This document shows, one piece after another, positions 3,626-56,971 of a DNA stretch of 64,000 bases. Source of the stretch: Blastocatellia bacterium (GTDB lineage: Bacteria; Acidobacteriota; Blastocatellia; Pyrinomonadales; Pyrinomonadaceae); contig CAVSZR010000001.1 of NCBI GenBank assembly GCA_963732475.1, forward strand, positions 11,631-75,630, in the 5' to 3' direction. The notes beneath the pieces are model-generated. The model made no database searches and was not told where the DNA came from. It was given only the letters and a program-made list of their open reading frames with translations. The first letter of the stretch is position 1, and the number at the start of each line of letters is the position of its first letter. A program made the position numbers and the translations under genes.

Positions 3626-6211
3626 ATGCAAGACCGAGATCCTCATTTGAATTGGCGACTGCAGACGTGGTTGTTACTTGCCGTCGGTGCGGCAATATTT
3701 GGATTTTCGATCTACGAGACCGTTTCATTGTCCATTTCAAGGATAGTGGTTCTTTCTGCGTCTATTTTTGTAGCCATTCTCGTCAGTAAGTACGAGGCCC
3801 GGATCCCGGGCACCAACGTGGTTTTTAACCCGAAGATCGTATTTACTCTCTGGGGAGCAATTTCGATTGGAGTCGGTGCCGGAGTGATCCTGGCGGCTTG
3901 TGCAGCGATCTCGAGTATCGGGCGATATCAGAATAACCGGCGCAAACTGATCCATACGGTTGCGAGGGATATCATTTGCGCTTTTGTGGCAGGGATCGGA
4001 TTTGAAAGGGCACTTGCTTATTCGAACACGTTTGGACTTCTCCCGGCAGAATCAGGACTTCTAATACCGAACGAAGTCATAGTGGCCGCATCGTTCATGG
4101 CAGCGGTTCATTTCGTTTTCAATGAGATACTTTCAGTCGCGTTGTTTCGGCTTGAAAACGGCCAAATTCATAAAGGCGATCTGCGTGAATTGTTGCTGGC
4201 TCCCGTGATAGTCACGGTCGTGGGCTATATTGTAACCATCCTGCTATTGATCGTATTCGATCATTTCGGTACTGAGTTCGGCCTCGTCGTCATACCCCTT
4301 GTCATCGTCGGAAATCTCGCCTATGAGATCCATTCCCGCAGGCTGGAACATCAAACCAAACAGATCACCGAGGCAAGCCGGATGCATCTTGCAACGGTTG
4401 AAGCCCTTGCGACAGCGATCGACGCACGCGACCAGGTGGGCATGGGCCACGTTCGCAGGACACAGATCTATGCGGTAGGAATCGGCGTTGTAATGGGTCT
4501 TGACGAGGGAGAAATAAATGCTCTTCGAACGGGTGCTCTATTACACGATATTGGAAAACTTGCTGTTCCCGACCACATCCTAAACAAACCTGGCCGGCTT
4601 ACGTCAGCCGAGATGGAAAAAACCAAGATCCATTCGTCGGTTGGCGCTTCGATCCTTGAAAAAGTCGGGTTCCTCTATCCGGTTGTGCCTACGGTGAAGT
4701 ACCATCACGAATTTTGGGACGGAAGTGGCTACCCCGAAGGGCTGAAAGGCACGAACATTCCATTGACAGCCAGAATACTGTCTGTGGCCGATGCATACGA
4801 CACCCTTCGAGGAGCCCGGCCCTATCGCCCGGCTGTTTCCCGCGATGATGCGTGCAATTTCCTTCGATCGAGGGCGGGTACCCAGTTTGACCCAAATATC
4901 GTAAATATCTTTCTCCGAAACCTTCGGGCAATGGAAACGGAGATCGAGATGCAGGGTATCGAATACAGCAGCGATTCGGAGATCAAATCAAAAGGGTCGA
5001 TCAACGCCGAGAGTTTTGACCGCTCCGAATTTTGTCGAGCAAATAAAACGTGCCAATAAAGAGGTGTTTCTCCCTCTACGAGATGGCGAGGGATTTCAGC
5101 TCCTCACTCAATCTTGATGAAATGCTATCGCTTTTCGCGGAGAAAGTGTCTGAGTTTGTGCCGTTTGACACTTGTCTGGTGTACCTGCTGGACGAATCAG
5201 GGGAATCTGCGACGGCAGTTTATGTCGAGGGCAAAAACACGGAAGCTCTAAAAGGAAAACACGTTAAAGTGGGCGAAGGCGCGACAGGTTATGTGCTGAA
5301 AAAATGCAAACCGGTCGAAAATGTCGACCCGTCTTTAGATTTCATTTTTTCGACATTCCGAGATCTGTGAAGATTATGTTGCGATGGCGTGCCTGCCGTT
5401 ATTGGCCGACGAAAAGATCATCGGGGCGATTTCCCTTTATTCGGGTGAGCTTGCGATCTACGAAGAAGAGCACCTGCGGTTGCTCGAAACTATTTCGCGT
5501 ATCGCCGCCGATGCTATCAGCAAGTCGGTAAGGCACGCCGAAACGGAAACTCACGCGTTGACGGACCCAATGACCGGGTTGCCAAATGCACGGAGCCTTC
5601 AGTTCCAATTTGAGAAGGAAATGGCACGCGCGAAACGGAGCGGGCACAACCTTCAGCTTCTCGTCCTTGATCTCGACGGATTTAAGGCGATCAACGACAC
5701 TTTCGGGCATAAAACCGGCGACGCGATGTTGAAAGAGATCGGCAGCCGTCATAAAGAAAGAGCTTAGAGACTACGATTTTCTAGCCAGGTATGGCGGCGA
5801 CGAGTTTGTGGCCCTTGTTCCTGAAACCGATAGTGCTGACGTGATCGAACTATGCCGGACGAATCGAGTCGGCTGTATGCGAATTCTCGCTTCCGGTCGA
5901 TGAGACGGCAACGAGCCGGAGTCGGCGTAAGCGTTGGTTCTTCCTGCTTCCCGGCTCATGGCGAGAATTTTGACCAACTGATCGAGGCGGCAGATAAGGC
6001 GATGTACAGAACGAAGGCATTTCACAAGCAACGCAATTCTCGTCTTGAACAACATCAGACGCGATCCGTCTCCGGCAATCATTTCCTCCCCGCCGAGGCC
6101 CTAAGGATAGTGGAGGAGTCAGCCTGGCCCGGCAGCGATCCGCTTAAAGAAAGCGATCTGGTGGTTGAGTTGGATGAAAGCCACATCGTTTCTTATTCAA
6201 CGATCAACTAA
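3626..6211 (+). CDS. membrane-anchored HD-GYP / GAF / GGDEF multidomain c-di-GMP protein (at least 6 frame shifts between about 5040 and 5920)
   Basis: The N-terminus has multiple TM helices. HD-GYP motifs are HDIGK and [14 protein letters not shown]-like sequence is in ORF 5050..5370. The GGDEF domain is split over ORFs 5384..5767, an unlisted frame ([10 protein letters not shown]) and 5852..6211. The linker [21 protein letters not shown] bridges the frames. Confidence 0.8.
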
Positions 6212-9649: not shown

Positions 9650-12600
9650 TCAAAATCGCTTTCTAAATCGAACCTCAAAGCTGAAACTATTCCGGTCCTG
9701 AGTAACATTGCTCAACGACCGCTGTTCGTATTGCGCTACAAATGACAGCTTGTTTGAAACGCGATACTCGAGAGCGAGCACTTGATTCTGATCCTGTGAA
9801 AGATTTGTTGCGTACGTCACCCTCAAATTATTGTTGATCTGGCGGCCGACCGTGAGCCTTGCGGACGGATTGAGCCGCTGGCCGGAGATGATCGGATCGA
9901 TCTCAAACACATTCAGGCCAAAAAGCTTATCGGTCGCCTTGCGGGCCGGGTTATTGATTATTGAATCCGTCAGTATTTCGGCCGCCGTATTGATGCCGGT
10001 TTGGGCTAATGTTGGTATTCCTGCCTCGGTATTTGAAAGATTACCTGTGGTAATGAGTGAGATCACATCGGCCTGCGGCAGCGCAGGGCTCGATCGGACC
10101 GCTGCAACAAGTTGCTCGGTGTCGGTCAGTGATCCGGAAAGATTTACAAATATCTGATACCCTCCGATCTCGGATTCGGCCTGCAGGTTAATTATTGGCT
10201 CTATTTCAGTATTTGGCGGAAATTCCAACACGCCCCGTTGGACGATATATCGGTCCTTCCGGAAAAATACAGTGCCGCTGTTTGCGGTGATCCGGCCCGA
10301 AATTTGGGGCGTGTCGGTGTTTCCGGTCAGACGAAGTGACGCCGACGCTGTTAGATCGGCTATATTATTTCGCACCACCAGGGCATCACGGCCTTCGATC
10401 GTCAGATCGAAACGTGGCGCCTGTAATGACGTGGAACCACTCGCAAGCGAACCCTCCCGGCGTGCACCGACCACGTTTGCCAGGTCAATATCCCTTGTGT
10501 AAAGACTTCGCCTTGCAAGAATATTCCCGGCTATCAGGGTCGATAGGCCGGAGCCAACCCGGCGGCCCGATATCTCAAGTCTGGCGTCACCGGTCGTGAT
10601 GAAATTCTTTGGCAGCGGGACCGTGATGTTCGTTCCGGTAAGGTCAAAACGAAATGACGAGAGCTGCAGATCATCGCCGATCAAGGCTCCGCCACTTGCA
10701 ACAAATTTTCCGCCGCCAAGATAGCCGGTTGCCTGGTCGACCTGGATCTGATTAGACGAGAACAAGACTCGTCCCTGAAGACGGTCGAATGTCAGGCGAT
10801 CGGACCCGATAAAAGTTGCAAACGAAGCATTTTCAAGTACGGCCGTTCCGGAAAGGCGGGCCGTCTTATTCACACCCGCTATCCGTATGGAAATATCGGC
10901 GATCCCGGCAAAAAAATTGTCACTGGCTGAAATGCCCGGAATTATATTCAAGAGGCTCAAATTGATGCGGCCATCAAGCGACAAATTGTTTACGCCGTCC
11001 TCGGCAAGGGCCTTTGTACCGGCGATCGTCACGTTCGACCCACCGCCGGAAAAATCGAGCACTTTCAAAGGAAATTTCACGGGTGTTGAAGCGAACCACG
11101 ACCGGTTCAGTTGCGACCAGCGGCGTATCTTGAATTTGCAGGGCCAGCTGGGAAAATTGGGCCGAGCCCGTCAGATTATCCGTCGTGAAAACGGTTTTGC
11201 CGTTTGCGTCTTTCTGGGCGAGATTACCGCCGAATTCAACCCGTCCGGTTCCGGTACCGCCGATCGCCAAACCTTTTAGTTGAGGGACGAGAGCGACAAA
11301 CGGGCCCAACGGACTCTGATCGAAGTCGGTCTGTATCTGAAACGGAAGTCGTTCGTCCCCGAAATTTACCGAGGCATTTATGAGTTGCGGCCGGCCGTCG
11401 AGCGTTGCCACTAAGTCCGCGTTCAGCTTTTGGTCTGTCGTAACCCCCTTGAAAGTGACTTCTCCAAAGGCATTTTCGTTGACAATGACGTTGGTGGCAT
11501 TCCCGTTGAAAGTAATATTAAGGCCCGCAGGCCGGTCGATCTCACCGGTTGCCTTGGCGGTAAAATCGGTCGCCCCGGATATTGACGGAATGTTGCTGCT
11601 TTCAGGCAGGAATGAAAGCGCTAGCGGAAGCGGAACGGCCTTGCCGTTAACGTCGAGATCGAATGCCGTCGAAGATGTGTCGTAGGAGCCTTTAGCCCCC
11701 AAAAAGCCTTCGCCGACCCGAATCTCGCCGCTCTCGAGATCGATAAGCGTTCCTTTGAAAACAGCCTTAACCTTAAGGTTGTCGAATGTCTGGCCGGCGA
11801 TCGTTCCTTGGTCCGTTGCAATATTGACCTCGCCTTGCGATCGGTTCGGCAGTCCGCTGAGGTTGACCGTGCCGGTTGTCTTCCCAGTGAAATCCCTCAG
11901 GCGTTCCGGCAGATCGACGGGCAAGGCTGCGAGGAGATGGCCCGGCATTTACATTCGTTAGGGTCGCCTGAACTGAGATATTGTCTGCCCCGAGAGTAGG
12001 TACATTTACCGCAAATGCGATATTTCCGCCGTTTCGTTCCTGAAGCTTTCCGTTCCTGATATCTATCGCCGTCGGCGAAACGAGTATGTCGGTTGTAAGC
12101 GATCCAAGCTCGGTTCCCCGCAGCGATATGGAATCAAGCGATGCCCTTCCATCCACTGCAGGGTCTGTAAGATTGCCCGTTACCTTCCCGTCAAAACTCA
12201 AATTGCCGGCAACACTGGCTTTCATCGAATCGAACTGCGATTCAAACTCCGGTGACAGGCCCAGCACCCGCACCAGCCTTTCGATCTCGTTTGCATCTGT
12301 CGATCTGAGAGCAACATCCAGATTCGAATCATCGGTTCTGAGATCGAAACGGCCACTGGCATTCAGTTCGCTCTTTTCAGTGTTCAACTTCGCAAGATCG
12401 ACCCTGAAAAGGCCGTTCGTTGCCGAAAGATCGATTTTGCCGTTGACAGGGATCGTGCCGCGACCGACGCTGCCGGCGTTTGCAATGACGTCCGCATTTA
12501 TCGTTCCGCTGGTTGTCCGGTAATCTGTCCCGTCGAATGTCAGATTTACCTTGCCCGACGTTCGTCCTTCAACGGGAATTACGCGACCGCCTTGCAGAGC

Positions 12601-14780
12601 GGCCACCTTGGCTAAGTCGAGATCGGAGAAATCAACAACGATACGCGAATCGCTTCGGTCGTTGAGGGCGATCGTCGCGTTGCCATTCACTTGTCCGTTC
12701 ATGACATTGGCATTCAGATCGTTCAGTTCGACGCGGTCGTTGTTGACATTCATCTTCGCGGACGCCGCGCCGAGCGGAATGCTGCCGACGATGCCGCCGC
12801 CGATACTCATATCGGCGCTTGCCCGATAGCGTCCCGAAGGTTCGACGACGAAAACCGGCTTTACGATCTTCACCGCCTCCAACATGCCCCCTTCAGGGAT
12901 CACGCTGTTTTTGACCAATGCAACGTTCCCGGCGTCTATATCATTCGAGGTTCCTTCAACCCGGCCTTCGCGGATAGTGAGCCGAACGCCGGCGATATTC
13001 AAACTGCCGAGGATCGCACCTTCGGCAGCGATCTTGGCGACCCGTATGGTGTCGGAATAGATCCGCGTGTCCGCACCTCTGTCCTCTATATCTACTGACG
13101 GAGCGGACACGCCGGTTATGATCGTACCGTCGGCGTCGACCCGATCGGCCTGAAGATCTTTAAGCTGGATGTCAAGGCCGTCAGGGCTGTCGTTGAGAGC
13201 AAATGAACCGGCCCGCAAATCGCTGGCTTTATTGTTCTTGAGCGTCGCGCTCCTTGCAGAAAGAGTGTCGAGGTTGACGGTTGTCCGGTCGTTAGCGTTC
13301 TTCACGCGGAGGTTGCGCCCCGTCAGGCCGTCGAGCCTGAAATCGGGCGTTTTCAGGGATGAAGCAGTGGCACTCGGAGCCAAAATATTGACCGTTCCGT
13401 TTTTACCCGCGATCTTCAAATTCCGAGCCGTAAGTTCAGCAAATTCCGTGTCGCCGATCGAGAATTTCTTTGCCCGTCCGGTGCCGACATTTCCGGTAAG
13501 CTGTTTGTCTTTGTATTCTGCGACGGCGTCCGAAAGAAACAGCCCGCCAAGCGTCAGCGATTTCGATTTCGCAGCTATCGCCTGCAGTTCACCGACCCAG
13601 CGGAAGTCAGTACCGGTTCCGCGAACGTTGCCCGCGATCTTCGGAAATTCGATGCGGAAATCCTCGAACGTCAACAGTTCCGCAACAGCCGTTCCGTTCG
13701 CTTCATACGAAGAATTTGTGCCTTCGACCGTGGCGGCGACGTTGACGGCCTTAAGATAAATGCCCTCCGCCGCAGCGACTCTGAGTCGATCTTGCCGTCA
13801 ACCTTATACTGCTCGCCTTCGCCTGAAACCGTTCCCTTGAAGTTTCCGACGCCGCGGATCGATGTGCCGAGCGGAAAGATCGTCGAGGTTTGCGTTAGGT
13901 CGACTGAGGATTCGATATTCAGGTTGTATTTGAGAGCAGCCCAGTCTGTGACCTTTCCATTCATTGTCGACTCGCCGATGGGTGTCGTCAGCTTTAAATT
14001 TGTTATGTCCGCACCCATCCGGTCGGCGATCCCAACCGCACGAATGTCGACCGGCGTCAACGGCCTGTCGTCGTAAACAAATTTTGAAGCCGTAGAGCTG
14101 AGGTCGAATTTATACCGTTTTTGATCGTCGGGGACGTCGTAATTTTCGGGTTCCAGAAGAAATGTCAGGTTGTTGGCGTCGGCCGCGATCTTTCGCGAAA
14201 CATCGCCAAAATGAACAACGCTGTCGCGAAGGGTGAAATTGATCGATTGGTATTTGAAGTTGACACGGCTACCCGCCTGATCTTCAACAAGGTGCAGATT
14301 AGAAAAATTAGACTTGCCGTCGGCGTCAAACTTTATCCAGGCCTCTGCTCCGTTAATTTCTGTTTTATCGATGCTAATGTCTCGGCTGAGCTGCCAGGCA
14401 TAGAGGTTTTGCACCGTCAATCCAAGCCGGGCGTCGCGGACGAAGAAAAGTTTTTCTCCGGAAATCTTATCGTTGAATGTCGCGTTCTTAAGCTCCAACT
14501 CCAACGGCGAGAGCGTAAGTCGAAAAACGTCGGCGTCGAACACGACACCGATCTCTTCCATCTTCGCTGTGAATTGATTTTTAACGTAGGTATCAGCCAC
14601 TCCGTTGCGGTAAAGGACGACCGCGATGATGGCCGCGAGTCCGACGCCAACCAGCAACAGGCCTAAAACCACGACAAGATTGCGGCGAGCAAAGAACCGC
14701 CTCCGATGGGGGGGTGCCGGCGGATCGTTCGCAGCGTCTCCTTCGTCCTTGATCGGTTCGATGTTCTCTTCTTCGGGCAT
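9650..14780 (-). CDS. tamB: TamB-like translocation and assembly module protein (DUF490 C-terminus), fragmented into 4 ORFs
   Basis: ORFs 13671..14780 (N-terminal TM anchor), 11773..13674, 10974..11948 and 9650..11080 overlap end to end. All carry repetitive beta-rich sequence. The C-terminus LSFVAQYEQRS...SFEVRFRKRF is DUF490-like. Confidence 0.7.
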
Positions 14781-25509: not shown

Positions 25510-25577
25510 GCCACAGAGTTCACAGAGAACTCAGAGGTTACCTGTCTCAACTCTGTGTTCTCTGTGTTTTCTGTGGC
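25510..25577. repeat. triple-unit hairpin (unit CACAGAG) filling the gap between DUF1844 and MBL genes
   Basis: The left arm is GCCACAGAGTTCACAGAGAACTCAGAG and the right arm is CTCTGTGTTCTCTGTGTTTTCTGTGGC. They form 23 Watson-Crick pairs plus 1 GU out of 27. The hairpin lies 3 nt after the stop and 8 nt before the next ATG. Confidence 0.85.
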
Positions 25578-27428: not shown

Positions 27429-27541
27429 CTAAATTATTGTGTTTCAAAGCGTTACCGCAATGTTACACGATTATTCAACCAAAACCTTACAACTTGCGCG
27501 TTAAATGCTGCAAATACACGTTTTAGCAATTAGTTTAAAAA

Positions 27542-27587
27542 CCACTACATTTAGTGTTGACAAAGGTAAATGACTACCATATAGTCT
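27542..27587 (+). promoter_or_regulatory. two NrdR-box-like palindromes overlapping the nrdA promoter
   Basis: Box 1 (27542..27557, ccACTACATTTAGTGT) matches the consensus acaCtAtATaTaGtgt at 13 of 16 positions. Box 2 is ACTACCATATAGT (27573..27585), with an odd central spacing. The centre-to-centre distance is about 28-29 nt, shorter than the usual ~31. Confidence 0.3.
27557..27585 (+). promoter_or_regulatory. sigma70-type promoter candidate for nrdA
   Basis: TTGACA (27557..27562), a 17-nt spacer, then TATAGT (27580..27585). Confidence 0.4.
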
Positions 27588-27812
27588 ATATCCACGACGG
27601 GAACGCTCAGAAGATTTTGTTAGTTTGAAAGAGATTTGCGGCACGTTTTGCCGCAACTGCCCCGCTAGCGGTAATGGGGAACGAAGACTGCCAATTGAAC
27701 CGTGATCTCATCTTCCATATTGGGAAACGGCAGCCGGTAGGAAAGGCCTTAACAGGCGCAAATTAATCCAAATCAATCCAGGGGGTGCGAAGTGGACGCC
27801 GCTTTAGAGAAA

Positions 27813-27858
27813 GGCCGGTGATGAGACTATTTGTCTCATGAAATAACCGGCACTTTTT
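27813..27858 (+). terminator. terminator-like hairpin inside the nrdA leader (possible attenuator)
   Basis: GGCCGGTG-ATGAGAC-tattt-GTCTCAT-gaaataa-CCGGC is followed by ACTTTTTC, about 55 nt upstream of the nrdA ATG. Confidence 0.3.
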
Positions 27859-27913
27859 CGACGACGCTTCTTCGCCAAAATCAGAAATTTTTCCACGAGG
27901 CTATCTAGTAGAA

Positions 27914-30327
27914 ATGGACACATACATCGGTCAATCCGCCGCCGCAGCAAGGCAATTAGAAGAACCGGCACAGACAACGATGCGCGTTGCCAAGCGCAAC
28001 GGCTCGCTTGAACCGGTCGATATCAATAAGATCGTCCGGGCCATCTCTCGCTGCTGTGTAAATCTGCCGAGCGTGGACGCGATGCGGATCGCGACCAAGA
28101 CGATCAGCGGCCTTTATGACGGCGCGACGACCAAAGAGCTTGACAAGCTTTCGATACAGACGGCAGCGAGCCTGATCTTCGAAGAGCCGGAATATTCGCG
28201 GCTCGGGGCTCGGCTCCTGAACCAGTATGTTGAAAAAGAGGTCCGCAATCAGGAAATTCATTCGTTCTCACAGTCGATCGCGTTTGGCGTAAAGGAAGGC
28301 CTTATCGCCCAACGTGTAGTCAACTTCGTTTCGGAAAACAGCCGCAAGCTGAATGACGCAATAGACCAGACCCGCAACGATCTATTCGAATTTTTCGGTC
28401 TCCGCACCTTGTACGATCGATATCTATTAAAAAATCCCGTAACGCGCGACGTTATCGAGACCCCGCAGTTTTTCTGGATGCGCGTCGCTTGCGGCCTTTC
28501 CGAAACGCCGAACGAAGCTATCGAACTTTACCGTCTCTTTTCATCGCTCGAATACGTGCCGAGTACGCCGACGCTCTTTAACTCGGGTACCAAACACGAG
28601 CAGCTCTCGTCTTGCTTCCTGCTCGATTCACCGCAGGACAGCCTGGAGAGCATTTACAAGAAATACTCCGACGTCGCTATGCTGTCGAAATTTTCGGGCG
28701 GCATCGGCATTGCATACAGCCGCGTGCGTTCGCAGGGTTCGCTGATCCGCGGAACGAACGGCCATTCGAACGGCATCGTGCCTTGGCTCAAAACGCTCGA
28801 TTCGTCGGTTTCGGCGGTAAATCAGGGCGGCAAGCGTAAAGGTGCCTGCTGCGTTTATCTTGAAACGTGGCACTCGGACATCGAAGATTTCCTTGAGCTT
28901 CGCGACAATACCGGCGACGAGGCCCGCCGCACGCACAACCTCAATACTGCGAATTGGATACCCGACCTCTTTATGAAACGGGTCCAGGCCGACGAGATGT
29001 GGTCGCTGTTCGACCCGAAGGTCGTGCCGCATTTTCCGGATGTTTACGGGGAGGAATTTGAAAAGGCTTACGTCGAAGCCGAAGAAGCCGGACTGTTCAC
29101 TCGGCAGTTAAAAGCCCGCGACCTGTACGCAAAAATGATGCGGACGATGGCCCAGACCGGCAATGGCTGGATGACGTTTAAGGACGCCGCAAACCGCAAA
29201 TCGAACCAGACGGCAAAACCCGGGAATGTCGATACATCTTTCGAATCTCTGCACCGAGATACTTGAGGTCACGTCCGAGAACGAAACCGCGGTTTGCAAT
29301 CTCGGTTCGATAAATCTTTCGACGCTACGTGAACAGCGACGGTTTTGATTTTGATAAATTGCGGTCGAATGTACGGCTGGCCGTTACGCAGCTTGACCGC
29401 GTGATCGATCTTAATTATTACGCGATCGAGAGCACGGCGGATTCGAACAATCGTTGGCGCAACATCGGCCTCGGGCTGATGGGCCTGCAGGATGTGTTTT
29501 TCGGGCTGCGGCTGCCGTTCGATTCCGAAGCCGCAAGAACGCTCTCGGCAAAGATACAGGAAGAGATCTATTTTGCCGCCCTCGACGCCTCGTGCGAGCT
29601 GGCGATCAAACGCGGCAAGCACCCGGCCTTTGAAGAAACGCGTGCGGCACAGGGCGTTTTCCAGTTCGACCTGTGGGGGATCGTGCCCGAAGACACGGAA
29701 CGCTGGGACGCACTGCGTGAAAAAGTCAAACAGCACGGCCTTCGCAATAGCCTGATGATCGCCATTGCGCCGACTGCGACGATCGCCTCGATCGCCGGCT
29801 GCTACGAGTGCATCGAGCCGCAGGTATCCAACCTTTTCAAACGCGAAACGCTGTCGGGCGATTTTGTTCAGGTCAACAAATATCTTGTCAAAGAATTGAA
29901 AGCGGCCGGGCTGTGGACGGACGAGATCCGCAACAAGATCAAACTTTCGGAAGGTTCGATCCAGGACATCGAAGAATTTCCCGAAGAACTGAAAGCGATC
30001 TACCGGACGGCATGGGAGGTGCCGATGCGTTCGCTGATCGACATGATGGCGATCCGCGGTGCCTTCATCGACCAGAGCGCTTCGCTAAACCTGTTCATGG
30101 AAAGCCCGAATATCGGCAAGCTTTCGTCGATGTACATGTACGCGTGGGAAAAGGGTTTGAAGACAACCTATTACCTTCGCTCGCGGCCGGCGACGAAGAT
30201 CGCGCAGGTGACGGCGGACTATAAGGTGTCGGAGCTCGTGCCCGAAGTGGCGGAAAAGGTTTACACGGACGAAGAAGCTTTGGTTTGCTCGCTGGAAAAT
30301 CCCGAGGCTTGCGAGGCGTGTCAGTAG
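27914..30327 (+). CDS. nrdA: ribonucleoside-diphosphate reductase alpha subunit (two frame shifts near 29225 and 29325)
   Basis: [54 protein letters not shown], then [25 protein letters not shown] in a third frame, then ORF 29329..30327 ([13 protein letters not shown]...TTYYLRS). An alternative start is at 27980. Confidence 0.9.
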
Positions 30328-30329
30328 CG

Positions 30330-30746
30330 AATTTCGAATAACGAATATCGAATGATGAATGAAGGAGTTTGATCTAAAGTCGCGAACAAAGAGTTTTGCA
30401 TTGAGGATAATCAAACTTTTTACGTCGCTACCAAAAACGGCAGAGGCGCAGGTCATCGGAAAACAGATATTGCGAAGCGGGACTAGTGTCGGTGCTCAGT
30501 ACCGAGAGGCTTGTCGAGCCCGCTCAAACTCGGAATTCATCAGCAAAATGGCAAGTAGTCTTCAGGAACTGGATGAAACGTCTTATTGGCTCGAGCTCTT
30601 AGTAGACGCAAATTTCATAAAAGCCGAAAAGCTAAAAAGCCTTCAGGATGAAGCAGATCAATTGATAGCTATTTTTGTCTCGTCGATCAAGACCGCTAAG
30701 GCAAAGAAATAACGAATTCATCATTCGATATTCGATATTCGAAATT
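30330..30746. repeat. 31-nt inverted repeat (30 of 31 complementary) enclosing the four-helix-bundle ORF; IVS-like stem-plus-cargo module
   Basis: The left arm is 30330..30360 (aatttcgaataacgaatatcgaatgatgaat). The right arm is 30716..30746 (attcatcattcgatattcgatattcgaaatt). The nrdA stop ends at 30327 and the nrdB ATG is at 30748. Confidence 0.85.
30359..30712 (+). CDS. four-helix-bundle protein (23S rRNA intervening-sequence protein family, TIGR02436-like)
   Basis: FDLKSRTKSFALRIIKLFTSLPKT..VIGKQILRSGTSVGAQYREACRARSNSEFISKMASSLQELDETSYWLELL follows the family pattern, including the E..YWL helix. Confidence 0.85.
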   Translation: MKEFDLKSRTKSFALRIIKLFTSLPKTAEAQVIGKQILRSGTSVGAQYREACRARSNSEFISKMASSLQELDETSYWLELLVDANFIKAEKLKSLQDEADQLIAIFVSSIKTAKAKK

Positions 30747-30747
30747 T

Positions 30748-31745
30748 ATGTTACTCGACCCAGGATTCAACCTCACCCTTCGCCCGATGAAGTACCCGGA
30801 TTTTTATGAAATGTATAAAAATGCGATCAAGAATACGTGGACCGTCGAAGAGGTCGATTTTTCGACCGACGTGACCGATCTGCGAAACAAGATGTCCGGC
30901 CCGAGCGGCATATGATCAACCGGCTGGTCGCGTTTTTTGCGACCGGCGATTCGATCGTTTCGAACAATCTCGTACTAAATCTCTACAAGCACATCAATTC
31001 GCCCGAAGCCCGGATGTACCTGTCGCGTCAGCTTTACGAAGAGGCGGTGCATGTGCAGTTTTACTTGACGCTGCTCGACACGTATATTCCCGACCATCAC
31101 GAACGCGAACAGGCGTTTGCGGCGATCGAGAATATTCCGTCGATCCGCAAAAAGGGCGAGTTTTGCATGAAGTGGATCGACACTATTTCCGATCTGGATT
31201 CGCTAACGACGAAGGAAGAACGGAAGCAGTTTTTGCTGAACCTTATCTGTTTCGCGACTTGCATCGAAGGGCTGTTCTTCTTCGCGGCTTTCGCGTACGT
31301 CTATTTTCTGCGTTCGAAGGGTCTGCTGCACGGCCTGGCGGCCGGTACGAACTGGGTCTTTCGCGACGAGTCGGCGCATATGAACTTTGCATTGGAGGTC
31401 GTTAATCAAGTCCGCAACGAAGAGCCGGAGCTGTTCGATCACGACCTGACTCGGCAGATCGTCGAAATGCTTGACGAGGCGGTCGAATGCGAAATGCAGT
31501 TTGCCGAGGACATCCTGAGCGGCGGCGTCGCCGGGCTGTCGGTCGCCGACATGCGGCAGTATCTCGAATTCGTCGCCGACCAACGCCTCGCCATGCTCGG
31601 GCTGCAAAAGGTTTACGGAGCAAAAAATCCGTTCTCGTTCATGGATCTGCAGGACGTCCAGGAACTGGCCAACTTCTTCGAACGCCGCGTCTCGGCCTAT
31701 CAGGTCGCGGTCGCGGGAGAGGTGAGCTTTAACGAGGCATTCTAG
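30748..31745 (+). CDS. nrdB: ribonucleoside-diphosphate reductase beta subunit (frame shift near 30900)
   Basis: MLLDPGFNLTLRPMKYPDFYEMYKNAIKNTWTVEEVDF (55 codons, unlisted) continues as ERHMINRLVAFFATGDSIV. The metal site is YEEAVHVQFY, with Tyr at the radical position. The second site is FRDESAHMNF. Confidence 0.9.
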
Positions 31746-31770
31746 AGGAATTACCGATCAGAAGAACAAG

Positions 31771-31797
31771 GGGCGGCCATGGTGCCGCTCTTTTATT
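31771..31797 (+). terminator. rho-independent terminator candidate after nrdB
   Basis: The stem is GGGCGGC/GCCGCTC with loop catggt, followed by TTTTATT, 26 nt after the nrdB stop. Confidence 0.45.
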
Positions 31798-31865
31798 GGC
31801 TTCATGTGTCATTCCTTCCATCTGACACAAAGGTGACCAAGTTTGAGCATCGGGCTTTAACGAAG

Positions 31866-33938
31866 TCAGATCGACAGTCCGACGTTGCCTTCCAGAACCT
31901 GTACATCGAGGTGCGGCCGCTCGCCCGGTTTCCACAGCTTGGCGACATGGGCGACGCGGTAGCGTATCGGGCCGCCGTCCGGCTCGGGCTTCGGGTGATG
32001 GGCCGCGGGATGCAGACGAACTCGGTTCGCATCTCATTGGCCGTGAGACTGCACCTTCGCGTAGCCGTGGCCGCCTAGGTCGACGAACTCGAGGTGCGGC
32101 GCGAGCTGCGGGTTCGAGAGGCCGAGTGCTCGCTTGAGGTCGAAGCTTTTCGCATATTCGAGGCAAGAGCGGACGCCGTGGCGCAGCAGCATGTTGTAGG
32201 TCCAATCCGGCTTGCCGCCGTCCGGGTCGGTCGGCCAGGAAGAGGGCCCGCAGCGGATGATCTTTGCGGAGGCCATGCTCTAAGGCTTCCATTCGCACCC
32301 GGGCTTGTCAATGACCCTCCGACGAAGCTCAATCCGACGGGCTCAAATTTCCGCGGCGGAAGATGTGCGGCGGCGTATCCGGCCCAGAAGGCGTGGCGGT
32401 CGCCGGACACGATCGCAAAGCCCGTGATCTTCGCATCGCGCACGAGGTCGTAGATCTCCTTCCGCTCGGCATAGGCCGCGCCGAAATCGTCGGTCCTGCC
32501 TATCCCGTAAGTGTCGGCCGGCCACGGATTCTTCACCATTCCGGCGGGAAGGTTTTGCATATCCACGCGGTTGTCGAGAGCGCCGAGCGAATTTCCCCAG
32601 ATCTTCCACGTCGCCTTCGACTTGCGCAGCTGAGTCCTTGAACCACGCCTTCTGCTCGACGCCGAGGATGGTCCGCGGCTGCTTGTCTTTGCTCGGGTTC
32701 GGAATGCGCACATCGCGGAATTGAAGTTCGGCAGGCGGCTTCCCGCCGTCGAAGGCGCGTCCCGCGTCGAGCGCGATCATCGCTTCCTCCGAAAAGTAGC
32801 CGCGGAACGACGGGTCGTAGATCTTTCCGACCTCCTCCGCGTCGCTCGGGTCTTCGCCGGCGAAGCTGCGCTGGTCGGTGATGATGAGGTCGAGGTGCTT
32901 GCCGTATCGGAACGCGCGGTAAGCGATCAGGCTGCGGATCGCGGCGAGGTTGTTCGGCTCTTGACCCAGCCCGTTCTCGTCCCACTTGTCGATCTTGACG
33001 TTCTTGACCGCAACCTTCCCGAATTCGGCGAGCGAGCCGCTCGGCGGCGTGACGCGAGCCGGAATGTATTCGAACCAGGCCTGATTGGCGGCGACCTTGA
33101 CGGTCTGGCCGGGCTGCGGCGGACCGCCCTGCTGGAGAATGCTTTGTCGGCCCTGCCACGAGAATTCGTGATTGTCCCACATGCAGACGAACGGCCAGCG
33201 GGCGCGGGCATCCTGCAGGTCGGGATCGGCGAGATAGCCTTTCCATACGGCGCGGTAGCCGTCAACGGTTTTCGGCCAGTAGAGGTTGCCGGTCTTTCCC
33301 GCGTCGGGGATGCGGCAGACCTCGTAGATCGTCCGGTCATAGCGGGTGGCTCCTTCTTCCGGATATTGAACGACCTCGTAGATGAAGTCGCCAAGGTGCA
33401 GCACAAAGCCAAGCTGATCCGCGGCCTGAGCGCGTTCGTCTTCGAAGATCATCCGGCGATAACCGTTGAGCTTTCCTTCGTTGACGCTCTGGCAGCTGAC
33501 GAATGCAAAATTGACGTCGCGGTCATCTTTGTCCGTTGGCGCTGTCATCGTACGGCCCACGCGGCTGCCAAACCCAAGGTCATCCGTGAATCGGTACCAG
33601 TAGACGGTACGCGGCTTAAGGCCGGCAACCAGAACGCGGCATGTCCAGTCAGCATCCGCTGAGATGGATGTCACGTTCTTTCCAACGACGCGTCGAAAGG
33701 CAGAGTCCTCAGCGATCTCAACCGTCAGTTTAGCCGCTGCCTTATCTACAGGCGGCCGCCGCGTCCACAAAATGATACTGTCGGGTGCAGGATCTCCCGA
33801 GGCTACGCCCTGCGGGAAAAGGTCGCGCCGCTCTTGCCAGCCAACCGACGAGGCTTGTGCTCGGCTCGTCGCCCACATCAACACAGCACCGAAGGATGCC
33901 GCCTGTTTTACAAATTCTCTCCGACTGATATTCTTCAT
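31866..33938 (-). CDS. phoD: PhoD-family alkaline phosphatase with Tat signal (at least 4 frame shifts; may be a pseudogene)
   Basis: The Tat signal is SRREFVKQAASFGAVLMWATSRAQA. PhoD-like motifs include FVSCQS, HLGDFIYE, WDNHEF and, in ORF 32075..32713, IVSGDRHAFWAG. The C-terminus continues in two further frames down to LEGNVGLSI-stop at 31866. Confidence 0.75.
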
Positions 33939-34029: not shown

Positions 34030-34183
34030 ACGGTCGTCGCAAAAAAATCTACGACGCACAGAACCCTTTCGCGTACTGGATCTGCTTGAGGACGTGCAGG
34101 AACTGGCCAACTTCTTCGAACGCCGCGTCTCGGCCTACCAAGTTGCTGTCGCGGGTGATGTGTCATTTAACGAGGCATTTTAA
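34030..34183 (+). pseudogene. orphan duplicate of the nrdB 3' end (last ~50 codons)
   Basis: ...QKNLRRTEPFRVLDLLEDVQELANFFERRVSAYQVAVAGDVSFNEAF-stop compares with the nrdB end ...QKVYGAKNPFSFMDLQDVQELANFFERRVSAYQVAVAGEVSFNEAF-stop. 34097..34137 is identical to 31659..31699 (41 nt). Confidence 0.8.
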
Positions 34184-52098: not shown

Positions 52099-52209
52099 AA
52101 CAGGATGGACAGGATAAACAGGATTCCTGTCTGCTTTCTAACAACTGGAGCGAACAAATAAACATCACGATCACCCTTATCTTATCCTGCCTATCCTGTT
52201 AATCCTGTT
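52099..52209. repeat. triple-unit hairpin (unit ACAGGAT) with a ~59-nt loop, between convergent genes
   Basis: The left arm is 52099..52124 (AACAGGATGGACAGGATAAACAGGAT). The right arm is 52184..52209 (ATCCTGCCTATCCTGTTAATCCTGTT). 22 of 26 positions are complementary. The right arm encodes the last codons and the stop of the cutC-HIT ORF. Confidence 0.8.
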
Positions 52210-54656: not shown

Positions 54657-54728
54657 GCCACGAATTACACGAATTACACTAATAAGAACCAATGCGGAAA
54701 CATTCGTGTTATTTGTGCAATTCGTGGC
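54657..54728. repeat. triple-unit hairpin (unit CACGAAT)
   Basis: The left arm GCCACGAATTACACGAATTACAC and the right arm ...GTGTTATTTGTGCAATTCGTGGC form 20 Watson-Crick pairs plus 1 GU out of 23. The hairpin fills the gap between the stop at 54733 and the next start at 54644. Confidence 0.85.
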
Positions 54729-56421: not shown

Positions 56422-56431
56422 AAAGTCAATT

Positions 56432-56503
56432 AGCCACGAATGTCACGAATTTACACGAAATGAAGAGAGATCCACATTCGTGATATCCGTGTAAATTGCG
56501 GCT
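56432..56503. repeat. triple-unit hairpin (unit CACGAA)
   Basis: The left arm AGCCACGAATGTCACGAATTTACACGAAATG and the right arm CACATTCGTGATATCCGTGTAAATTGCGGCT form about 20 pairs with bulges. The right arm overlaps the upstream stop codon. The left arm ends 10 nt before the next start. Confidence 0.7.
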
Positions 56504-56971
56504 AATTCATCCTCGACTTAAATTTCTCAAACTCGGCATACGGAAACGGCTGGCGCCAGTTGAATTCGAACTCATCCGTTTCGCGGTCATCATAAAGCTG
56601 TTCAAATGTTTCTGCGAATGCTGAGACGGTATCCGCTAACCGTCCCTGAGTGCGAATATACCAGTTCACGTTCCGCCGCGTCGCGTTCTTCCGTCGGGTA
56701 CTGATAGATCTCGATCAGAAATCCCTCGCCATCACGAACAAACCGAAAATCGAACTCTTCAGGGTCGCGGTTCCATTTGAGCAAGATATTCGTTCTGCAG
56801 TCGATGCGGGATCGAGCAACTGCCGTCAATATCCGCACAAGCTCCGGCAAGGCAAGTTGCATGCGGAGCGTGGGCGGTAGTCGTGTGAAACTGGTTGACG
56901 CCGTCGTCAAAACCGATCGACATCCATCCGCACTGCGGGCTGTTAAAGCTGACTTCAAGTTTGCCTGCCAT
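56502..56971 (-). CDS. hypothetical protein (two frame shifts)
   Basis: MAGKLEVSFNSPQCGWMSIGFDDGVNQFHTTTAHAPH continues as LALPELVRILTAVARS...LLKWNRDPEEFDFRFVRDGEGFLIEIYQYP, then as ...SAFAETFEQLYDDRETDEFEFNWRQPFPYAEFEKFKSRMN-stop. Confidence 0.4.

Follow-up and report, generated by a model that had tools for sequence, protein, structure and literature searches.

A four-helix-bundle gene between inverted heptanucleotide arrays in the nrdA-nrdB junction of a Blastocatellia bacterium, with relatives in other operon junctions

The module between nrdA and nrdB

In the present study, we analysed a 64-kb stretch of Blastocatellia DNA (hereafter the window), in which the two genes of a class I ribonucleotide reductase (RNR) are separated by a small additional gene. 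All of the features described here lie on the forward strand. The large-subunit gene nrdA, with ATP-cone, Ribonuc_red_lgN and Ribonuc_red_lgC domains, occupies 27914-30327 and ends in a TAG stop codon at 30325-30327, and the small-subunit gene nrdB follows at 30748-31745, with its ATG at 30748. In the assembly, nrdA is divided into three frame segments, as was found by tblastn with the NrdA of locus L001 (frames 2, 3 and 1) and by alignment to relatives; the frame breaks are two apparent single-base insertions, near 29233 and 29322. There is also a single apparent frameshift in nrdB, near 30903, and the deposited nrdB gene call is likewise truncated (P0121, 277 aa). Upstream of nrdA, a promoter-like site (TTGACA-17-TATAGT, 27557-27585), which is a consensus match only, agrees with the consensus at 11 of 12 positions; transcription of the module probably begins here.

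The space between the two genes is taken up by an inverted repeat with arms of 31 nt at 30330-30360 and 30716-30746, paired at 30 of 31 positions (97% complementary) and separated by 355 nt. These arms are the top-ranking inverted repeat within 1500 nt in the whole 64-kb window. The loop carries a 117-aa gene of the four-helix-bundle (4HB) family PF05635 / TIGR02436 at 30359-30712, whose start codon lies inside the stem. Both arms are built from tandem units of the form CGAATNN, a property overlooked in the earlier note on this DNA, in which the positions of the arms, the ORF, the nrdA stop and the nrdB ATG had all been given correctly. On the left, five 7-nt units (CGAATTT, CGAATAA, CGAATAT, CGAATGA and TGAATGA) form an array at 30328-30362 that contains the stem arm, and the last of them supplies the ATG of the 4HB gene. 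The right arm is the complementary heptad array (ATTCATC, ATTCGAT, ATTCGAT, ATTCGAA and a final ATT); it begins 3 nt past the stop of the 4HB ORF and finishes 1 nt before the nrdB ATG. Thus, the nrd cassette is a PF05635 gene whose flanking inverted heptad arrays pair into a duplex of about 30 bp, with the gene in the loop, and it is oriented with the operon. It is the only 4HB module in the window.

Folding of 30320-30755 as RNA, which the earlier note had proposed as a check, predicted a stable terminal stem in both the minimum free energy and the centroid structures, with a z-score of -5.9 and none of 100 shuffled sequences as stable. The ungapped stem score of the module was 28, and shuffled flanks reached at most 11 (0/411 reached 12); a chance inverted repeat was rejected as a reading of the arms. 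An intrinsic terminator was also ruled out, as the stem is AT-rich, encloses a loop of 355 nt and is followed by an ATG rather than by a U tract. A signal scan gave no promoter-like or forward-strand terminator-like site inside 30300-30760, and no forward-strand terminator-like site anywhere in the nrd operon. Between the right arm and the nrdB ATG there is no Shine-Dalgarno (SD)-like motif. In addition, a search of 27500-32000 against Rfam at permissive E-values matched no family and no rRNA.

The assignment of the small protein to the family of 23S rRNA intervening sequence (IVS) and Avd-like proteins, made earlier from the letters of the sequence, holds. The 117-aa product matched PF05635 with an E-value of 2e-22 (79.7 bits, cutoff 33.8) and TIGR02436 with 6e-29 (100.5 bits, cutoff 24), and phmmer aligned it to PDB entry 2rld with 1.5e-23. 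The AF2 monomer model (pLDDT 93.7) has helices at residues 6-23, 28-52, 57-83 and 89-115; Foldseek placed it nearest to 2rld (BT_0352, TM 0.87) and Xcc0516 (2gsc, 0.83), then to Avd (4dwl, 0.77), and the diversity-generating retroelement (DGR) ribonucleoprotein 8ube was also among its structural matches. Of the family motif R-x3-S-x3-N-x2-E (PMC3936711), R39, S43 and E50 are present and invariant, and the N position is occupied by Q47, which is invariant in the subfamily. The 2rld entry contains five chains, and Xcc0516 is a homopentamer according to Lin et al. 2006 in the form in which that work is cited in PMC4990558. Judged by its homologues, the protein probably forms a barrel of five subunits that binds nucleic acid, and the heptad arms would be the obvious candidate target. 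PADLOC matched the protein to no defence system.

The nrd junction in relatives

Several Pyrinomonadaceae MAGs have, in the same junction, a gene for a protein 81% identical to that of the window (P0036), enclosed by a stem of 37 nt that is likewise built of CGAAT heptads. The order nrdA-4HB-nrdB with heptad stems was found at 34 non-redundant loci, and the spacer of 31 nt from nrdA to the 4HB ATG was kept in most of these orthologous loci. Hence, relatives with the module at this position also have the stem, one of the points on which the earlier note had proposed to stand or fall; other members of the family are stem-flanked too. Copies above about 72% identity, from hosts labelled Pyrinomonadaceae, Pyrinomonadales, 'Chloracidobacterium sp.' or Acidobacteriota, lie nearly all in the nrdA|nrdB junction, and the nrd-junction copies form one clade in the protein tree. 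Among 35 nrd-clade genes, synonymous sites were saturated in 568 of 595 pairs, and where dS was measurable the dN/dS of the 4HB gene was about 0.05, which indicates that the 4HB protein is kept by selection. We conclude that the nrd copy is an old and mostly vertically inherited resident of Pyrinomonadales.

Across the 34 nrd loci the duplex has a median length of 27.5 bp and includes the 4HB ATG; its first pair lies about 1 nt past the nrdA stop and its last about 5 nt before the nrdB ATG. Arms paired better with the partner arm of their own locus than with arms of other loci, both by pairing score (15.8 vs 12.8, 0/2000 permutations) and by duplex free energy (-29.4 vs -24.7 kcal/mol, 0/5000 permutations). 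The arms therefore co-evolve within each nrd locus, despite the saturation of synonymous sites. Among the mismatches of the stems there were 39 G.U and 59 A.C pairs, with no RNA-type excess of G.U; since this excess is lacking, concerted evolution at the DNA level could also keep the arms complementary, and selection on the sense RNA is only a possibility. None of 36 nrd-clade cassettes has an SD-like motif before the 4HB start, and such a motif is present in 81 of 107 copies from other contexts. Distances between NrdB proteins and between 4HB proteins were uncorrelated (Spearman 0.02). This is a poor fit to simple vertical co-inheritance, and is probably explained either by NrdB being too conserved or by allelic exchange.

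Junctions without the module were sought through NrdB homologues, among relatives of at least 88% identity only, and the look-ups gave one empty and one replaced junction. In the empty one, L184, the nrdA-nrdB spacer is a plain, hairpin-free 17 nt (TTAACTAGGAAAAAAAT) with AGGA upstream of the nrdB ATG, whereas the module-bearing loci have no SD-like motif at nrdB. Locus L183, whose NrdB protein is identical to that of L184, carries the cassette. In the replaced one, L178, the junction is occupied by an unrelated GC-rich hairpin, which was sought in the 64-kb window and was absent from it. Both L184 and L178 nest among module-bearing loci by NrdA/B identity ranking, with bootstrap nestedness used as a proxy, which suggests loss, replacement or allelic exchange. 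No direct repeat that could be a target-site duplication flanks the arms, either in the window or in the filled-versus-empty pair L183/L184.

These junctions bear on the proposal, made in the earlier note, that the module had inserted into a pre-existing hairpin, of which empty examples were said to occur at other gaps of the window. Hairpins with tandem-unit arms do occur in other gaps (25510-25577, 52099-52200, 54657-54728 and 56428-56507), but with units of 9 nt and another sequence. The proposal itself finds no support at nrd: the empty site of L184 speaks against a pre-existing hairpin there, the hairpin of L178 is unrelated, and the other hairpins of the window have units of another length.

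Cassettes in other junctions and phyla

A further 159 loci came from scans of contigs from metagenomes and GTDB genomes. In 149 non-redundant relatives, which come from Acidobacteriota, Chloroflexota, Verrucomicrobiota, Planctomycetota and Desulfobacterota, the gene lies nearly always within inverted heptanucleotide arrays; copies at 63-72% identity are from Anaerolineales and other Chloroflexota, Verrucomicrobiota, Planctomycetota and Desulforhopalus. Of the 137 non-redundant loci whose flanks were complete, 111 scored 12 or more for a flanking stem, a value that none of the 411 shuffles attained. The lag-7 autocorrelation of the flanks was 0.45-0.51, compared with about 0.25 elsewhere. The period itself is specific: 217 arrays of period 7 were counted in 878 kb, with at most 11 for each of the periods 5, 6 and 8-12, and heptad arrays were 29-fold enriched within 120 nt of the ends of 4HB ORFs. 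The heptad unit varies between copies (GAATGAT, GAATGCA, GAAGGAT, GAGGGAT, GAACGAT, GAATTAT and CGAATAT).

The habit of lying at an operon junction is likewise general. Both neighbouring genes are on the strand of the cassette in 64 of 74 non-nrd loci, and the arms lie near the stop of the upstream gene and the predicted start of the downstream one. The most frequent contexts were carA|carB (21 loci) and the junction of a Cys/Met PLP enzyme gene with that of homoserine O-succinyltransferase (metY|metA, 16 loci), and argB|argD, argB|carA, carB|argD, GH4|galT and type III Mod|Res also recurred. Furthermore, 22 solo heptad hairpins with short loops were found in the same contigs as cassettes, some of which form in-frame parts of carA, carB and a methylase gene.

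More distant members (36-68% identity) were found at eight annotated plasmid loci from Cyanobacteriota, Chloroflexota, Bacteroidota, Spirochaetota and Bacillota. The plasmid hosts are cyanobacteria, Chlorohelix, Bernardetia, Treponema and Monoglobus, and 7 of the 8 plasmid loci have annotated neighbours on both sides that point the same way (csx2|cas1, helicase|methylase, drmD|pglX, DUF1156|HEPN, fabH|M20, DMT|DUF4832 and hsdS|hsdR); the copy of Nostoc punctiforme lies downstream of a divergently oriented tnsA. Most plasmid copies have inverted 7-nt arrays of unrelated units (AATCGTA, AGATTTT, GGTCGGA, GAAAGNG and AATTAGG), and the heptad pattern is weak or irregular in the Pseudanabaena and Bernardetia plasmid copies. 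In a published survey, 18 genes of the 4HB family were recorded in cas operons, the one at the cmr3|cmr2 junction of Pleurocapsa being an example (PMC3936711). We read these copies as a reflection of the operon-junction habit and not of a CRISPR function; cassettes of this kind probably account for the reported association of the family with cas and restriction operons.

Taken as a whole, the cassette occurs in unrelated operon junctions of at least nine phyla and, in the form of the ORF-bearing IVS, also in 23S rRNA. No published description of heptad-flanked, operon-junction copies outside rRNA was found in the non-subscription literature covered; the heptad-flanked operon-junction cassette is apparently a widespread pattern that has so far gone undescribed.

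Comparison with known systems and possible mechanisms

The agreement with the ORF-bearing IVS of 23S rRNA, at which the earlier note had already pointed for the stem-plus-ORF layout, extends beyond that layout. As in the IVSs of Coxiella burnetii, Leptospira and others, a PF05635 ORF lies in the loop of a long terminal stem, within a highly expressed host transcript and co-oriented with it. The Coxiella IVS has a terminal stem of 28 bp and tandem heptamers before the ATG of the S23p gene, and it is excised by RNase III, which cuts where the first repeat begins (PMC4990558). Tandem heptameric repeats directly upstream of the ORF start are therefore common to the Coxiella IVS and the window module, with GACAGAT as the heptamer in the former and CGAATNN in the latter. 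The host differs: 23S IVSs occupy helix 25 or 45, whereas the window module occupies the nrdA|nrdB operon spacer. In every testable respect except the host transcript, the architecture in the window is that of an IVS. Excision by RNase III has been shown for the Coxiella IVS and would apply to the window module by extension. The Coxiella ORF has been reported to be untranslated and decaying (PMC4990558), in contrast to the strong purifying selection on the 4HB protein of the nrd cassettes, and the IVS precedent consequently gives no reason for the conservation of the protein there.

On these grounds we favour, with a probability of roughly 0.55, the reading that the module is a hitchhiker cassette of the IVS type, which is transcribed with nrdAB and whose stem insulates the operon, cutting by RNase III being probable and translational coupling possible. 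As no promoter-like or forward-strand terminator-like site lies inside the module, we infer that transcription starts at the nrd promoter and runs on through the cassette, which would lack its own promoter. Once transcribed, the two arms would pair within the polycistronic message and thereby clamp the nrdA stop beside the nrdB start and bury the start of the 4HB gene. The long and nearly perfect duplex would be a substrate of RNase III, whose cut would probably free the RNA of the cassette and turn nrdA and nrdB into messages of their own. By analogy with excision from 23S rRNA, such cutting would render the insertion of 420 nt harmless to the operon. A second role is compatible with this one: ribosomes finishing nrdA may melt the outer stem and expose the SD-less start of nrdB, and translational coupling could in this way survive the insertion.

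It is also conceivable, but in our judgement unlikely, that the stem acts solely as a translational switch or coupling clamp, which stays uncleaved and hides the starts of the 4HB gene and nrdB until ribosomes terminating on nrdA melt it. Long-range translational coupling of this sort is known from the coat and replicase genes of MS2. The geometry of the 34 nrd loci is what a clamp would call for, as the outermost pairs adjoin the nrdA stop and the nrdB ATG and the 4HB ATG lies inside the stem. In addition, nrdB has no SD-like motif in the module-bearing loci and has AGGA in the module-free L184, and the arms keep near the upstream stop and the predicted downstream start in the other contexts as well. 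The difficulty is with the uncleaved state. RNase III is expected to cut a near-perfect RNA duplex of about 30 bp, and the duplex of the window, if formed, should meet this fate, for which Coxiella provides a precedent (PMC4990558). The lack of G.U enrichment in the stems also weighs against a clamp.

The arms could instead matter at the DNA level only, as the terminal inverted repeats or cruciform of a mobile element or as a repeat homogenised by intramolecular gene conversion, with the RNA duplex incidental. We regard this as improbable, even though several observations lean towards it. Related copies with 63-75% protein identity are found in different junctions and phyla, copies from neighbouring arg/car operon junctions interleave in the tree, solo heptad hairpins are scattered in the contigs and some lie in frame within genes, close relatives differ in whether they have the module, and the mismatch spectrum bears no RNA signature. 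Against it, there is no transposase, and the single filled-versus-empty comparison showed no target-site duplication. The arm sequences differ widely between copies, so there is no single terminal sequence for an enzyme to recognise. Moreover, a symmetric DNA hairpin alone would not enforce the co-orientation that is seen in the great majority of non-nrd loci and in most plasmid loci, and the way the arms track stop and start codons points to a constraint on the transcript. A mobile cargo element, the second option of the earlier note, is upheld in part. A recent insertion does not agree with a single old nrd clade and saturated synonymous sites, while mobility over long time scales is supported by the related copies in different operon junctions and phyla.

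A dedicated RNR accessory factor, placed in the operon for co-expression with the subunits, would account for the position kept within nrdAB in 34 loci. This reading is effectively refuted by the relatives at 63-75% identity in carA|carB, metY|metA, arg, galT and Mod|Res junctions, by the further relatives in cas and type I restriction-modification junctions, and by L184 and L178, which have near-identical NrdA/NrdB and no 4HB gene; the 4HB cassette is not an RNR component. That the gene is the Avd of a DGR, or a remnant of one, was rejected in spite of the similar fold of Bordetella phage Avd (4dwl; RNP 8ube), because sequence identity to Avd is 15-16% and no reverse transcriptase was found among the neighbours checked, namely nrdA, nrdB and further flanking ORFs (DUF1844, metallo-beta-lactamase, GNAT, PhoD, deoxyhypusine synthase and one without a Pfam match), the orthologous loci being equally free of one.

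Avd and PF05635-type proteins belong to the same superfamily (PMC10053308). The four-helix-bundle fold is common to Avd and the window protein, but Avd sits with a reverse transcriptase and with template and variable repeats, which the window module does not have nearby. The stand-alone TIGR02436 genes BT_0352 and Xcc0516 match the window protein in sequence as well as in fold, and the TIGR02436 genes of cas operons share the junction habit of the cassette.

In other bacteria, REP/RAYT systems have a gene bracketed by inverted hairpin-forming repeats, and the RPE of Rickettsia are palindromic elements that insert in frame. The heptad cassettes may be compared with both, as solo hairpins are scattered elsewhere and some lie in frame inside genes. 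Unlike RAYT, the window protein has no HUH or transposase fold, and the repeats of the heptad cassettes are defined by their 7-nt periodicity and not by conserved sequence.

A broader reading, which we put forward tentatively and consider doubtful at present, is that PF05635 genes and heptad-armed hairpins make up an unrecognised class of elements that spans phyla, in which the pentamer recognises the arrays and helps to propagate or maintain them, and the solo hairpins are non-autonomous members. If this were true, such elements would colonise the tips of transcribed hairpins, whether these stand in operon junctions, in rRNA helices or even, in frame, within coding regions, in an arrangement akin to REP/RAYT minus the nuclease fold. 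It would also explain why '23S rRNA IVP' genes are scored as CRISPR- or defence-associated. To our knowledge, ORF-bearing 23S rRNA IVSs have stood unexplained for thirty years. As the cassette of stem, heptamers and ORF is present in ordinary operon junctions of at least nine phyla, the IVS problem broadens beyond rRNA, from a curiosity of ribosomal genes to a general class of transcript-embedded elements with many natural replicates. The predictions that follow are rnc-dependent cleavage in essential operons, long-range coupling of cistrons and binding of the protein to heptad arrays. For genome annotation, the cassettes are of consequence in that they split operons and contribute arrays of heptanucleotide repeats.

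Heptanucleotide repeats are abundant in some genomes, as in the STRR of cyanobacteria and the TAACTGA repeats of Beggiatoaceae (PMC4679880). Those repeats have been described as direct arrays, and PMC4679880 reports neither a link to PF05635 nor an inverted partner. The cyanobacterial 4HB cassettes, for their part, contain heptanucleotide arrays like STRR, and the broader reading, if correct, would show where the heptanucleotide repeats so abundant in cyanobacteria and other bacteria come from.

Hairpins in the nrdA-nrdB junction and other intergenic gaps

In one lineage of the Pyrinomonadaceae, represented by the nrd loci L178 (3341-3500) and L179, the four-helix-bundle gene was absent from the nrdA-nrdB gap. 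The spacer of this lineage is 160 nt in length and contains a 22-bp GC-rich stem (AGTAGCCCGCACGTAAGTAAGGG / CCCTTACTTACGTGCGGGCTAC). Hairpin elements seem to have occupied the nrdA-nrdB junction repeatedly. In the window, four further intergenic gaps are filled by hairpins, at 25510-25577, 52099-52200, 54657-54728 and 56428-56507, the arms of which are built from tandem 9-nt units (CACAGAGNN, ACAGGATNN, CACGAATTA and CACGAATGT). These hairpins share tandem-armed stems with the nrd module, the stem-enclosed PF05635 gene between nrdA and nrdB (30330-30746), but they differ from it in their period of 9 nt and in the absence of an ORF. The hairpin at 25510-25577 begins 3 nt after the stop codon of a DUF1844 gene and is followed, 8 nt downstream, by the ATG of a metallo-beta-lactamase gene.

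Cassettes and solo hairpins in other loci

On an Anaerolineales contig (L116), two cassettes, that is, four-helix-bundle genes flanked by heptad arrays, were found at 292-709 and 3933-4423 within a single 8-kb stretch, and carB stands between them. In the protein tree, the cassette copies of adjacent arg/car operon junctions interleave, which suggests that these cassettes arose by local duplication. Heptad hairpins without the gene were also located in frame inside carA (L088, 2317-2384), carB (L133) and a Mod methylase gene (L103), in a manner that resembles the Rickettsia palindromic elements. Peptide segments such as VRMQNAE...IPHSAF are added by these solo hairpins to inter-domain regions.

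In the Pseudanabaena plasmid NZ_CP112878 (84214-85264), a cassette occupies the csx2-cas1 junction directly after a CRISPR array, and besides heptads its flanks include irregular repeats that are longer, at about 35 nt. Cassettes of this type may inflate the "CRISPR-associated" scores of the 23S_rRNA_IVP family. The heptad arrays around four-helix-bundle genes can be greatly expanded, as in a Treponema saccharophilum plasmid, where about 40 GAAAGNG heptads and then their complement lie upstream of the gene. An additional complementary array was observed downstream of it.

Frameshifts and a partial nrdB copy in the window

Compared with relatives, nrdA carries two single-base insertions (29233 and 29322) and nrdB one frameshift (about 30903), and the reading frames downstream of these indels are intact and conserved. 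The deposited NrdB gene call (P0121, 277 aa) is truncated as well. Overlapping ORF pairs also occur, for example 9650-11080 / 10974-11948 / 11773-13674. Indel errors in the assembly, and not pseudogene formation, most likely explain the frameshifts and overlapping pairs. In addition, the last ~46 codons of nrdB are present a second time at 34040-34180 (74% protein identity), 2.3 kb 3' of nrdB and past an opposite-strand PhoD-like gene; this copy may have been left behind when the 3' end of nrdB underwent a rearrangement or an insertion.
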